IMG/VR virus record: IMGVR_UViG_3300021963_000099
Reading direction: 5' to 3' (one strand)
DNA length: 20,000 bases
Source of the DNA: an uncultured virus (IMG/VR IMGVR_UViG_3300021963_000099)
Taxonomy: Duplodnaviria > Heunggongvirae > Uroviricota > Caudoviricetes
The position numbers were made by a program, and so were the translations under genes. The notes under the pieces are model-generated. The model did no database searches, was not told the origin of the DNA, and was given only the letters and a program-made list of their open reading frames with translations. Of the stretch, positions 5,678 to 10,055 are shown piece by piece. Each line of letters starts with the position of its first letter. Position 1 is the first letter of the stretch.

Positions 5678-6075
5678 TGGAAGATGAATTTTTTGCTTCA
5701 ATAAAATTAAAGAATGGAGAAGAGATTTTCTCTAAGGTATCTCCTTCTGACGAAGGAGATAAAGTTATTCTAATATTAGAAAATCCAGTAATAATAAAGG
5801 AAATAAAAATTAGATCAGAAACTTCTGGATACAAAGTAGAACCTTGGATTAAATCATCTTCTCAAGATATTTTTGTTATTAATATGGAAGATGTATTAAC
5901 CATATCAGAATCTTCTGATAGTTATTTTATTAAAATATATAATAAATTTTTAAGATCAAGTAGGCCTAATGTAAGTAAATCAAGCACTGATACATTTAAA
6001 AATAGAAAGATGGGATATATCTCTAATGTAACTGATGCTAAAAGTATTCTTGAAAAGATCTATAAGAACAGCTAA
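5674..6075 (+). CDS. Conserved cyanophage hypothetical protein downstream of uvsW (possible Sm-like beta fold)
   Basis: ASIKLKNGEEIFSKV N-terminus and MGYISNVTDAKSILEKIY C-terminus; ATGA coupling to uvsW. Confidence 0.75.
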   Translation: MMEDEFFASIKLKNGEEIFSKVSPSDEGDKVILILENPVIIKEIKIRSETSGYKVEPWIKSSSQDIFVINMEDVLTISESSDSYFIKIYNKFLRSSRPNVSKSSTDTFKNRKMGYISNVTDAKSILEKIYKNS

Positions 6076-6113
6076 AGCTCTTTAATATAATTATTTTAAA
6101 CTCTGACAAAGTT

Positions 6114-6143
6114 ATTATACACAGATTTCAAATTACTTGTCAA
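6114..6143 (-). promoter_or_regulatory. Leftward (antisense) sigma70-type promoter
   Basis: Minus strand reads TTGACA (6143-6138), 18-nt spacer, TATAAT (6119-6114): both hexamers are perfect consensus. Confidence 0.7.
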
Positions 6144-6165
6144 GTGTTTTTCAAAATGGTATAAT
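6137..6165 (+). promoter_or_regulatory. Rightward sigma70-type early promoter for the g55/g47/g46 unit
   Basis: TTGTCA (6137-6142), 17 nt, TATAAT (6160-6165), with extended -10 TG at 6157-6158. Confidence 0.8.
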
Positions 6166-6187
6166 TTAAACAATTCAAACCATAAAT

Positions 6188-6535
6188 ATGAATGATCCAG
6201 AGTTTCCTTGTACATTTTGTGGATGCTGTTGTTCTCATGTGGACATGGCAATAGAAAATGCTAGGAAATCTCCTCATCCGGTTTGGAATAACTCTGCAGA
6301 AACTTTTCCTTTCAGTTACGATATAAACGGTAAGTGTGAAAAACTCATTAATAATAAATGTTCTGTTTATGAAGATAGACCCTTACTTTGTAATTTAAAA
6401 AAATTGGGAGAGCTTCTTGAGTTAGATACAAAAACATGGTATTACATGGTTTCTAAGTCATGTAATCAACTAATGGATCAAGAAAATGTCCCAGATGAAT
6501 ATAGGATCAATGCAGAAAACATACTTACAAGTTAA
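6188..6535 (+). CDS. YkgJ-like CxxCxxCC putative zinc/iron-chelating (Fe-S) protein
   Basis: FPCTFCGCCC ... GKCEKLINNKCSVYEDRPLLC matches the family cysteine pattern CxxCxxCC...C..L...C.iY..RP..C. Confidence 0.8.
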   Translation: MNDPEFPCTFCGCCCSHVDMAIENARKSPHPVWNNSAETFPFSYDINGKCEKLINNKCSVYEDRPLLCNLKKLGELLELDTKTWYYMVSKSCNQLMDQENVPDEYRINAENILTS

Positions 6536-6536
6536 A

Positions 6537-7016
6537 ATGTCTAAAGGAAAAAGGTCGGAACATTATGTCAATAATAAAGAATTTTTAGAAGCTCTTATAA
6601 TTTACAAGAAAAAATTAAAAGATGCTGAAGAGAAGGGATTGCCAAAACCTGTAATTCCAAGGTATATTGGTGAATGTTTCTTAAAGATTGCAAACCATTT
6701 ATCATTTAAACCTAATTTTGTAAATTATATCTTTAAGGATGATATGATTTCAGATGGTATTGAAAATTGTGTTCAATATGTTCACAACTTTGATCCAGAA
6801 AAATCAGATAATCCATTTGCATATTTTACTCAAATTATTTACTATGCATTTCTTAGAAGGATCCAAAAAGAAAAAAAGCAACTAGAGATTAAAAATAGAA
6901 TCCTTGAGAAAAGTGGTTATGATCAAGTATTTGTAGATGATGATTCTAATGGTGGAGGAAATTATAGTGATTATAACAGCATCAAAGATACCGTGTATTC
7001 AAAAATGAGAAGTTGA
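6537..7016 (+). CDS. g55: Late transcription sigma factor gp55
   Basis: HYVNNKEF, YIGECFLKIA.HLS, DMISDGIENC and NPFAYFTQIIYYAFLRRI.KEKKQ. Start reassigned to ATG 6537 (MSKGKRSEHY). Confidence 0.96.
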   Translation: MSKGKRSEHYVNNKEFLEALIIYKKKLKDAEEKGLPKPVIPRYIGECFLKIANHLSFKPNFVNYIFKDDMISDGIENCVQYVHNFDPEKSDNPFAYFTQIIYYAFLRRIQKEKKQLEIKNRILEKSGYDQVFVDDDSNGGGNYSDYNSIKDTVYSKMRS

Positions 7017-7017
7017 A

Positions 7018-8070
7018 ATGAAAGTTGCAATTATTACTGATCAACACTTTGGAGCAAGAAAAAATTCTAAACTATTTCATGACTTTTTTCTAAAGTTTTA
7101 TAATGATGTATTTTTTCCAACATTGGAAGAACAGGGTATTACTACAATTATTGATATGGGTGATACATTTGATTCCAGAAAAGGAATTGATTTTTCTTCT
7201 CTTGCTTGGGCAAAAGATAATTATTATGATAAATTAAAATCTTTAGGTTGCACAATCCATACTATTGTTGGAAATCACACTGCATACTATAAAAATACGA
7301 ATAAGATTAATGCAATCGATTTATTGCTTAGAGAATATGATAATGTCATAACTTATTCAGAACCAACAGAAGTTAATATTTGTGGATTAAATATATTATT
7401 TTTACCTTGGATCAATGAAGAAAATGAAGAACTTGCTATTAAAATTATTAAAGAGACAACTTGCAACTGTGCGATGGGGCACCTTGAACTCGCAGGATTT
7501 GCTGCTAATCGACAGTGCATCATGGAGCATGGTCATGACCGCAAGTTATTTGAGAAAATCACCAAGGTATTGTCGGGGCACTACCATACTAGAAGCTATG
7601 CTGGAAACATTTTCTACATAGGAAATCCATACGAAATTTATTGGAACGATACGGAAGATCAAAGAGGATTTGCCATTTTTGATACTGAAACTTTAGAACA
7701 TGAATATGTAAATAATCCTTATACAATTTTTGAAACTATTTACTATGAAGATTTAAATTATCAAGTTTTTAATTTTAGTAAATACACAGATAAGATTGTA
7801 AAAGTTGTTGTTAGAAAAAATACTAATAAAAATAAGTTTGAAAAGTTTATTGATTCTCTTTATAATGCAAATGTTGCTGATTTGAAGATAATTGAAAATT
7901 ATAATTTTGATGGTTGGTATTCAAAAGAAGAATTTAAAAAGGAAATAGAATCGGAAGATACTCTTTCTATTCTTAATACATATATTAGAGAGTCTGATGC
8001 AGATCTAGACAAAACAAAACTTTCCGATATTATTCGGAACATCTATCAAGAATCTTGTGAGATGATCTAA
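7018..8070 (+). CDS. g47: Recombination nuclease subunit gp47 (Mre11/SbcD-like)
   Basis: Metallophosphoesterase motifs TDQHFG, GDTFD, VGNH, MGHLE and SGHYH. Confidence 0.96.
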   Translation: MKVAIITDQHFGARKNSKLFHDFFLKFYNDVFFPTLEEQGITTIIDMGDTFDSRKGIDFSSLAWAKDNYYDKLKSLGCTIHTIVGNHTAYYKNTNKINAIDLLLREYDNVITYSEPTEVNICGLNILFLPWINEENEELAIKIIKETTCNCAMGHLELAGFAANRQCIMEHGHDRKLFEKITKVLSGHYHTRSYAGNIFYIGNPYEIYWNDTEDQRGFAIFDTETLEHEYVNNPYTIFETIYYEDLNYQVFNFSKYTDKIVKVVVRKNTNKNKFEKFIDSLYNANVADLKIIENYNFDGWYSKEEFKKEIESEDTLSILNTYIRESDADLDKTKLSDIIRNIYQESCEMI

Positions 8071-8071
8071 T

Positions 8072-8341
8072 ATGCATATATTAACAATTCTCGGTGAAGA
8101 AGACAGGGGTGCTTACTCAGTAACAGACGAAAACGGAGAGCAAATCTTATACATCTTTGAAGAAGAAGATGATGCTTTAAGATTTGCTATGATGTTAGAA
8201 GACGCTGGTAGCCCAGAAATGAATGTGGTTGAAGTTGACGAAGAATTGTTGTATAATGTATGTGATATGCATGGTTATGACTATGCAGTTATAACTAAAG
8301 ATGACATTGTAGTTCCACCAGATCAATATGATAGTTTTTGA
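8072..8341 (+). CDS. Conserved small acidic protein, DUF3110-like
   Basis: LYIFEEEDDALRFAMMLE...VCDMHGYDY resembles, from memory, the cyanobacterial DUF3110 core (FE.EDDA.R[FY]A.LE); sits between g47 and g46. Confidence 0.65.
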   Translation: MHILTILGEEDRGAYSVTDENGEQILYIFEEEDDALRFAMMLEDAGSPEMNVVEVDEELLYNVCDMHGYDYAVITKDDIVVPPDQYDSF

Positions 8342-10055
8342 AAAAATCAGATGGAAAAATTTTCTTTCTACTGGAAATCATTTTATTGAAGTTGATTTAA
8401 ATACAGGATCAAACACTTTAATAATTGGGTCTAATGGAGCAGGTAAGAGCACAATATTAGATGCTCTTACTTTTGTTCTATTTGGAAAGGCGTTTCGTAA
8501 AATTAATAAACCGCAATTATTAAATAGTACAAATGAAAAGGACTGTTTAGTAGAAATTGAATTTACAATTGGAACTATTAATTGGAAAGTTGCAAGAGGA
8601 ATAAAACCATCTGTATTTGAAATTTATAGAGATGGAAATTTACTAAATCAAGAATCTTCTAGCGCAGATCAGCAAAAGTTTTTAGAGCAGACAGTTCTAA
8701 AAATGAACTATAAATCTTTTACTCAGATTGTAATTCTCGGAAGTAGTAATTTTGTTCCTTTCATGCAATTACCTGCAGCTGGAAGACGAGAAGTAATCGA
8801 AGATCTTCTTGATATTAAAGTATTTTCTACTATGAATACTTTAATAAAAGATAAGATGAGAATTTATAAAGAAGAAATTAGAGTTCTTGATCTAAAAAAA
8901 GAATCTCTAAAAGATAAAGTTGATCTTCAAAATGGATTTATTGAAGAACTTGAAAATAGAGGTAAAGAAAATATTCAGGATAAAAGAATTTCTATTTTAT
9001 CATTTACAGAAGATATTGGAAATCTTATGGATGATAATCAAAAGATTGAAAAAGAAACTTCTTTATTGCAAGATAAAATTCAAGATTTTTCTGATGCTAC
9101 AAATAAGTTGCGTAAAATGGGAAACCTGAAGGGTAAGTTATCTCAAAAGGTGAAAACAATCACAGATGAACATAAATTTTTCAATGAGAATACAACTTGT
9201 CCGACTTGTACCCAACAAATTGATGATGAGTTTAGAAAATCTAAAATAGAGGATGCTAAAAATAAAGCAAAAGAACTTCAAGATGGATATATTGAATTAG
9301 AAAATGCTATAAAGTTAGAAGAAAAAAGAGAAGATAATTTTATAAAATTATCAAAGCAAATAGTAAATTTAAATCAAGAACTATCAAAAAACAATACAAA
9401 AATTTCAGAGTATAATAAAAATATAAAAAAATTAGAAAATGAAATTATACAGGTAGAAACTCAATTAAAAAATAAAAATGAAGAACATAGAAAATTAGAA
9501 GAATACCAAGAAAAATTAGAAAATGTATATGATGAAATAGTGGAATTGAAGGAGAAGATGAGACATTATGATTTCTGTCAAAATCTTTTAAAAGATGGTG
9601 GAGTAAAAACTAGAATCATTAAAAAATATTTACCTATTATGAATGAACAGGTAAATAGATATCTTCAAATGATGGATTTCTTTATTAACTTTACTTTAGA
9701 TGAAGAATTTAATGAAACGATTCTTTCTCCAATTCATGAAGATTTTACTTATAGTTCTTTTAGTGAGGGAGAAAAACAGAGAATTGATCTAGCATTATTA
9801 TTCACTTGGAGGGAGGTTGCTAAGTTTAAAAATTCTACTAATACAAATTTATTGATATTAGATGAAATATTCGATTCTTCCTTAGATGGATTTGGTACGG
9901 ATGACTTCTTAAAAATTATAAGATTTGTAATTAAAGGATCTAATACTTTTGTAATTTCTCATAAAGAGTCTCTTCATGATAAATTTGATAATGTAATTAA
10001 ATTTGAAAAAAGAAAAAATTTCTCATATAAAACAATTATACAATGCAAAAATTAA
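8328..10055 (+). CDS. g46: Recombination ATPase subunit gp46 (Rad50/SbcC-like)
   Basis: WKNFLSTGN, GSNGAGKST (Walker A), CPTC zinc hook, FSEGEKQRIDL signature, LILDE (Walker B) and ISH. Confidence 0.97.
   Translation: MIVFEKIRWKNFLSTGNHFIEVDLNTGSNTLIIGSNGAGKSTILDALTFVLFGKAFRKINKPQLLNSTNEKDCLVEIEFTIGTINWKVARGIKPSVFEIYRDGNLLNQESSSADQQKFLEQTVLKMNYKSFTQIVILGSSNFVPFMQLPAAGRREVIEDLLDIKVFSTMNTLIKDKMRIYKEEIRVLDLKKESLKDKVDLQNGFIEELENRGKENIQDKRISILSFTEDIGNLMDDNQKIEKETSLLQDKIQDFSDATNKLRKMGNLKGKLSQKVKTITDEHKFFNENTTCPTCTQQIDDEFRKSKIEDAKNKAKELQDGYIELENAIKLEEKREDNFIKLSKQIVNLNQELSKNNTKISEYNKNIKKLENEIIQVETQLKNKNEEHRKLEEYQEKLENVYDEIVELKEKMRHYDFCQNLLKDGGVKTRIIKKYLPIMNEQVNRYLQMMDFFINFTLDEEFNETILSPIHEDFTYSSFSEGEKQRIDLALLFTWREVAKFKNSTNTNLLILDEIFDSSLDGFGTDDFLKIIRFVIKGSNTFVISHKESLHDKFDNVIKFEKRKNFSYKTIIQCKN

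Follow-up and report, generated by a model that had tools for sequence, protein, structure and literature searches.

Why does one short patch of an otherwise AT-rich phage gene turn to rare codons and vary so little at its silent sites? The question is raised by gene 47 (g47) in a stretch of 20,000 nucleotides from an uncultured virus, here called the window, which is DNA of a T4-like cyanophage whose closest cultured relative by DNA is S-SCSM1 (74%). The gene encodes an ordinary member of the T4 gp47/SbcD/Mre11 family: it matches the phrog_100 profile, its metal-ligand motifs are intact, its relatives in S-SM2, P-SSM2 and other phages are annotated gp47, and residues D8, H10, D49, N86, H87, H155, H188, and H190 are invariant among 26 sequences. 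The codon switch described in an initial annotation of this DNA is real, with a GC3 of 0.42 in codons 136-194 vs. 0.14 elsewhere in g47; in 12 genes of the window GCG accounts for 11 of 242 Ala codons, GGG for 6 of 214 Gly codons, CGA for 7 of 164 Arg codons, and TCG for 10 of 298 Ser codons. The same annotation held that both Gly-His motifs are encoded by GGG CAC, which is true of the window, whereas among 73 homologs only the first is fixed (GGG in 70, as opposed to 7 for the second). It attributed the patch to a cis-acting RNA or ssDNA structure. Here, we present evidence that positions 7424-7621 instead very probably encode a protein of their own, as a real gene nested within g47 in its +1 frame (Table 1).

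Table 1. Features of the window around the nested gene (all on the plus strand).
Feature	Position	Strand	Remarks
Sigma70-type promoter match, TTGTCA-17-TATAAT with TG, 11/12	6137..6165	+	consensus match only
g55, late sigma factor	6486..7016	+	phrog_234; upstream of g47, same gene run
g47, SbcD/Mre11-like nuclease subunit, mother gene	7018..8070	+	phrog_100, E 4e-112
Nested start region: A-rich, weakly folded, conserved ATG at 7424-26	7408..7426	+
Putative nested gene, 65 aa (P0001)	7424..7621	+	homologs 59-95 aa; conserved core residues 1-58
Codons of nested K10 and R17-W18-G19	7451..7480	+
Helices of the initial annotation	7458..7585	+	present in the window sequence; neither significant nor covarying
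gp47 Gly-His motifs	7477-7482 and 7576-7581	+
Conserved 89-aa gene	8072-8341	+	phrog_470; downstream of g47, same run
g46	8328-10055	+	downstream of g47, same run

The complementary stretches on which the structural proposal was built do exist. AACTTGC (7458-64) faces GCAAGTT (7541-47), ACTGT-g-CGAT (7466-75) faces ATCGACAGT (7508-16), and GCAG/CTGC, ATCATG-gag-CATGGT, and the palindrome at 7531-40 are likewise in place; the hairpin at 7566-85 is present with one T-C mismatch, leaving 7 of its 8 pairs. Such complementarity is no more than chance. Relative to shuffled sequences the patch folds at z +0.25 as RNA (116 of 200 shuffles fold as well) and at -1.07 as DNA (29 of 200), and relative to protein-preserving controls at -0.01 (232 of 500) and -0.67 (122 of 500). 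The folding energy thus lies within the range of codon-preserving controls, an outcome that the initial annotation itself had named as speaking against a structure. The minimum-energy RNA fold lacks helices 2-4, and in the RNA centroid nothing but the outer helix and the final hairpin is left. When 35 homologs were folded, one reached z -3.65, while the mean was -0.46 and the other extreme +1.36.

Comparison among homologs gives the structure some points in its favor. Across 59 distinct homologous sequences the helix at 7519-33 is paired in 97.7% of cells and the outer helix in 85.7%; overall pairing is 67.2%, a level often reached by related sequences without structure, and was equaled by 4 of 500 shuffles, the covariation score by 15 of 500. 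Against this, the five helices are paired very unevenly (86, 58, 17, 98, and 63% of cells), with helices 2, 3, and 5 the poorly kept ones, and double-change pairs number 9, compared with 9.2 in shuffles. In the well-kept helix, none of the 6 pairs is compensatory; the columns at 7519-33 barely vary and therefore carry little information, and a small hairpin may exist there. The consensus fold of the alignment is weak (-4.5 kcal/mol), has a different structure and 0 of 13 compensatory pairs, and no Rfam family reaches threshold on the patch. Sites that are silent in both frames vary freely (see below), and the local synonymous suppression that is expected of structured RNA is accounted for by the +1 frame. 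That a cis-acting RNA or ssDNA structure constrains these codons, alone or beside a nested gene, is therefore highly improbable, and a protein in the +1 frame takes its place as the cause of the constraint.

The constraint itself, which the initial annotation had proposed, was borne out. A codon alignment was made of 74 unique g47 sequences, window included, taken from the best 80 among at least 593 related loci. In codons 136-194 observed/expected synonymous variation is 0.40, the lowest value for an equal 59-codon window elsewhere in g47 is 0.83, and none of 100,000 random column sets is as low. The drop begins near codon 135, where a conserved out-of-frame ATG precedes the proposed structure by about 35 bases. 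Within the patch, Leu177 (TTA/CTA) and Arg192 (AGA/CGA) vary by first-position swaps, and Ala152 (GCG in 70 of 72) and Gly154 (GGG in 70 of 73) are nearly fixed. Judged from the aligned sequences, this substitution pattern is that of a second reading frame. The third positions of g47 are the second positions of the nested gene and are frozen for that reason, which produces both the GC-rich rare codons and the chance complementarity.

The +1 frame is kept open in most of the alignment. An ATG at the same codon followed by at least 59 codons (59-95) occurs in 66 of the 74 unique sequences (38 of 95 codons, 16 of 65, 10 of 76, and one each of 59 and 61). Four more are open with an ATG one to three codons away, three are broken (L031, L066, L075), and one could not be anchored, so that 70 of the 73 alignable sequences are open across codons 136-194. 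The ATG itself stands at the same codon in 67 of 74, and Asn136 is AAT in 72 of 73. The window has another in-frame ATG, at 7415, which homologs share only partly. Summed over the 74 sequences, +1 stops in successive bins of 10 codons from 131 to 200 number 4, 3, 1, 2, 0, 0, and 2, vs. 71 and 19 in the flanking bins, and no other alternative frame of the patch is open. Among the 70 open sequences, which are relatives and not independent, no stop falls in the nested region, for which codon usage in the rest of g47 predicts 120.7; in the flanks, 451 stops stand against 388.9 predicted and 370 against 339.5. An antisense ORF at 7523-7353 and other alternative frames were rejected on account of stops in homologs, the lack of a matching selection pattern, and the lack of a PHROG match. 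In L031 the nested frame is broken by two stops within codons 136-194, and L059 has an in-frame stop in g47 itself at about codon 135, which is either a sequencing error or a broken gene.

Selection acts on the frame and not merely on its openness. Rates of change were taken from 35 disjoint closest pairs with bootstrap ranges, the three broken sequences and the unalignable one having been left out here as well as in the stop-expectation and length-tracking analyses. Changes that are silent in g47 and alter the +1 product run at 0.158 (95% range 0.107-0.220) inside the patch vs. 0.463 (0.435-0.493) outside, the pair counts not being independent events. Doubly silent changes are not reduced (0.74 inside vs. 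0.66) and fall mainly in codons 165, 177, and 192. The pSN/pSS ratio is 0.21 for the +1 frame and 0.34-1.62 for the other frames, and changes that alter gp47 (pNN/pNS) do not differ between inside and outside (0.56 vs. 0.60 and 0.58). Among the changes that are tolerated, conservative +1 substitutions are overrepresented (0.108 vs. 0.042, as opposed to 0.18-0.20 vs. 0.14-0.15 outside). The constraint also tracks the length of the frame: in codons 213-230 the 95-aa group has a rate of 0.075 vs. 0.494 outside (19 pairs), whereas the same codons are unconstrained in the 59-65-aa group (0.499 vs. 0.541 outside; 9 pairs). The three g47 genes with a broken frame show no suppression, with a pS of 0.68-0.90 inside vs. 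a mean of 0.29 for nested pairs. The extra part of the 95-aa form (codons 201-230, as in L024 and in S-SM2, L109) is itself constrained; the window does not have the long form.

An open frame may also be a stop-free relic or by-product that encodes nothing useful. For the window alone the probability of an open frame is 0.16, and phages S-B05 and MC09 carry stop-free +1 stretches without the gene. However, the constraint far exceeds stop avoidance, and conservation at the level of residues is common to free-standing genes that are under purifying selection, which leaves this explanation hardly credible. The +1 frame of g47 in S-B05 (L115; P0024) is stop-free, bears a faint family likeness and has no start codon; it is possibly a decayed nested copy.

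Alternatively, ribosomes could enter the +1 frame by programmed frameshifting, giving a truncated gp47 with a new C-terminus. In line with this, the nested start lacks a canonical ribosome-binding site (no Shine-Dalgarno motif at the usual spacing, with GGA at -15 to -13), and gp47/+1 chimeras occur among database proteins (P0007, P0009, P0011-P0013, P0024). These chimeras, however, change frame at varying places, as sequencing or assembly errors would; the nested ATG is kept, the constraint starts at this ATG, and the free-standing homologs begin at about the same residue. Frameshifting is thus very improbable. For a separate nested gene, we propose that ribosomes would start internally at the nested ATG on a g55-g47-g46 message, whose transcription would be driven by a host-type promoter and fall early in infection. 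The mean fold energy at the nested start is -2.0 kcal/mol vs. -4.8 at 1157 other out-of-frame ATGs. From its sequence, the promoter match listed in Table 1 is a candidate for this transcript, sigma70-type matches in the window being no commoner than chance (16 sites vs. 18.1 expected in shuffles). The motif TATAAATA, which we take to be the late promoter motif, does not occur near the nested gene and has a single match in the whole window, at 487.

The nested protein has relatives that are encoded outside g47. When 1.84 billion proteins were searched with a profile built from 60 nested ones, there were 21 matches, 10 of which are proteins of 53-69 aa with R-W-G followed by residues that could not overlie the gp47 Gly-His codons; P0015 (1445 aa) was taken as a chance match of the profile search. 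Free-standing homologs occur in cyanophages S-SCSM2R, MC09, S-H34, S-CREM2, and DSL-LC03, and the MC09 form also in S-H34, MA01, MA10, ME01, S-N03, and S-CREM2. Their loci are separate genes in which the g47-equivalent frame is full of stops, and they are under purifying selection (pN/pS 0.11-0.50 in 8 of 8 pairs). The reverse search leads back to g47: tblastn with one free homolog against 50,697 phage records matched 18, 17 of them in the nested frame of g47 and the remaining one being the free gene SSCSM2R_55, and with another free homolog 8 of 9 matches lay in the nested frame of g47 and one was a free gene. The top viral fold match of the nested protein is A0A6G8R6U0, a 54-aa protein of Synechococcus phage S-H34 (E 0.64, probability 0.87, TM 0.60, 34% identity). 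This protein, SSCSM2R_55, WVQ00733.1, and SCREM2_gp175 are free-standing members of the family, tied to it by fold match, profile or tblastn; they are recorded as hypothetical only, are not nested, and their records mention no link to g47. Conservation of the frame, selection on it, and the existence of these homologs can be stated with great confidence.

The family is distributed more narrowly than its mother gene. The nested protein matches 18 phage records (10 phages), all annotated just as nuclease, and gp47 matches 2002. In a profile search of 19 cultured phage genomes, four had the nested form, three the free form (S-SCSM2R, MC09, DSL-LC03), and 12 gave no match. Among 185,579 cellular genomes there were three matches, all on short contigs with g47 and the nested frame (L157-L159); these contigs, from archaeal and Bacteroidota metagenome bins, are probably misbinned phage DNA. 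A metagenome scan with P0017 found no locus. Nested and free copies do not exclude each other, as contig G002 and two sister contigs carry both, and contig G001 has only the free form. The two copies in G002 (6001-6174 and 6864-7052 of L084; both forms also in L083 and L085) are not a fresh duplication, being 32% identical, and the free one has almost the same sequence as copies in other genomes. Most free copies are remote from g47, with varied unrelated genes beside them, and four fragments that carry them lack g47. Others are found among small hypothetical genes or near tRNAs, for instance just after or near tRNA genes in MC09 (L150 2647-2912) and L152 (3319-4162). One is the first gene after a near-consensus sigma70-type TTGACT-17-TATAAT, and one lies between a peroxiredoxin and an hli gene. 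The latter, in DSL-LC03 (L133 1504-1638, about 8837-8971 of the genome), is an unannotated member of 44 aa.

How did one family come to exist both inside and outside g47? We consider it likely that it was born by overprinting on gp47 and then copied out as a free gene, the patch also having been lost or recombined between alleles several times. The gp47 motifs under the overlap are the metal ligands of the ancient Mre11/SbcD family and are far older, which makes birth on g47 and later escape the simpler direction; they are kept in all 20 cyanophage g47 genes compared. The Met-Gly codons of the mother gene always give Trp in the +1 frame. With a profile made from free copies only, about 1500 offsets were ranked in each of 16 phages whose g47 lacks the nested gene, and in 13 of them the homologous +1 position came within the top 6%; the 16 genes are relatives of one another, and loss may have left relics among them. 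That Met is missing from the three exceptions, but also from S-T4, where the position ranks ninth.

The opposite order, in which the free-standing family is older and the nested copy derives from it, or both derive from a form no longer seen, draws on several observations. A branch with 98% support in a 58-column tree divides the free copies from the nested ones, the free side being far more diverse, and the free form is also present in distant genera, for example Makaravirus. Five changes are required for the nested state on the gp47 tree, and nested alleles as one clade were rejected (p-AU 1.6e-5). The 58-column tree is unrooted with the forms split by that branch, so it makes no statement on which form is older. 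Faster divergence of the free copies would follow from release from double constraint. Together with the age and retention of the overlapped gp47 motifs, the fixed +1 Trp, and the likeness that non-nested g47 genes already have to the free family at this position, this makes the free-first order improbable.

Within the history that starts on g47, the scattered nested state fits exchange of the patch by recombination, although shared constraint with repeated loss gives a similar picture. The patch DNA of G002 and S-SKS1 is nearer to most nested alleles (0.67-0.74 and 0.74-0.77, respectively) than to their sisters by flanking sequence (0.62, 0.63), and L031 differs from its sister L029 mainly in the patch (0.75 vs. 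0.94 and 0.90). On balance we favor a fuller account, in which the family arose de novo on the catalytic motifs of gp47, is still selected there, gained its longer form by extension of the frame, moves as an in-gene patch from one g47 allele to another, and left the overlap as a mobile free early gene acting on the host. If true, all stages in the life cycle of an overprinted gene are visible in living, partly cultured phages.

The product is predicted to be a protein of 59-95 aa with three short helices. Two structure models agree on helices at 2-18, 23-31, and 34-39 (pLDDT 80-86) and on a poorly defined tail; the first helix is amphipathic (moment 0.3-0.7), and the nested forms are basic. 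K10, R17, W18, and G19 are invariant in 44 nested and free-standing sequences, and the nested R-W-G overlies Ala-Met-Gly-His of gp47, so GCG ATG GGG CAC is fixed. In these models, the first helix with K10, R17, and W18 may form a binding surface. The family has no significant match in Pfam, PHROG or NCBIfam; none of 60 or 35 members matched any Pfam profile at E up to 1, and SapC, the best family match (E 0.0025, in 2 of 35), was taken as chance. No sequence match was found in the PDB, Foldseek on the PDB gave nothing, the structural scans had best Z scores of 4.0 and 4.3 in a flat list with no standout, and the ESM Atlas returned unnamed clusters under 0.9 or nothing. CsbD/YjbJ and NblA are, like the nested protein, short helical proteins with a Trp-Gly turn; the family matched neither by Pfam profile, and in fold comparison the nested protein is a small helical model within the same flat list (best Z 4.0-4.3).

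A role in regulating the gp46/47 nuclease or gp55, with the protein co-expressed from the same message, is suggested by the position inside g47 in the g55-g47-g46 run and by the free copy that directly follows g55 in G002. In G001 and most sister contigs, however, this free gene stands in an unrelated small-gene region; g47 is distant from most free copies, and the 12 cultured phages without a family match have g46/g47. Modeling the nested protein together with the nuclease domain of gp47 gave a score of 0.00, which speaks neither way. We regard such a regulator as unlikely and rank ahead of it, at about even chances, a dispensable early accessory of host takeover that would bind a cyanobacterial protein or membrane surface independently of gp47. 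The neighborhoods of free copies vary and point to no single function.

Nested genes as such are known from phages, for instance lambda Rz1 within Rz and T4 30.3' within 30.3. Rz1-type embedded o-spanins have a lipoprotein signal and a conserved Cys and are nested in the gene of an inner-membrane spanin; an o-spanin was rejected here because the alignment has no conserved Cys and the host gene encodes a nuclease. Genes E in D and B in A of phiX174 are further examples, gene overlap in this phage being described in PMC8227390. Like all of these, the g47 case is a short gene contained completely in another on the same strand but in a shifted frame, is rarer than its mother gene and suppresses synonymous variation. 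It differs in that its mother gene encodes a core recombination nuclease in a phage of roughly 200 kb, that the overlap covers two metal-ligand motifs, and that free-standing homologs exist; there is no family link in sequence between the known examples and the nested protein. In E. coli, families of out-of-frame remodeled genes (ORgenes) have been cataloged (Watson et al., PMC8788219). The likeness is that members of one annotated family match another, unrelated gene family in an alternative frame of the latter. In g47, by comparison, the whole protein matches and not a component, the alternative frame is still selected in many genomes, and nested and free forms coexist. Among main texts open without subscription we found no paper on a gene inside cyanophage g47, an earlier mention being possible. 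Proteomic work bears little on the product: the six-frame analysis of S-SM1 is reported to cover only virions (PMC3037559), and virion peptides of S-SCSM1 are reported to have been matched against annotated ORFs, so the nested protein was undetectable there (PMC9602691). Nested genes are already known as a kind, and we have little doubt that the g47 case is a conserved nested gene, from a new small family with free-standing members.

The gene would be an unannotated addition to the cultured cyanophages S-SM2, S-SCSM1, Bellamy, S-CAM9, S-PRM1, S-SKS1, and others. It lies hidden in a core gene that is used for phylogeny, its family is absent from Pfam, PHROGs, and NCBIfam, and dual coding distorts analyses of codon usage and selection on g47 in this cyanophage group. 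Since nested, free-standing, double, and lost states all occur, two questions become testable, namely whether overprinting supplies large phages with their many small orphan genes and whether overprinted genes leave their overlap; a direct follow-up is to compare orphan phage proteins with core genes read in alternative frames. Upstream of g47, the window holds two further features of its own. A minus-strand sequence at 6143-6114 matches the sigma70 consensus at 12 of 12 positions, overlaps the plus-strand match and faces the upstream genes, possibly as a divergent or antisense promoter, and a Cys-rich ORF of 115 aa with a weak PHROG match (E 3e-4) occupies 6188-6535, between the promoter match and g55.
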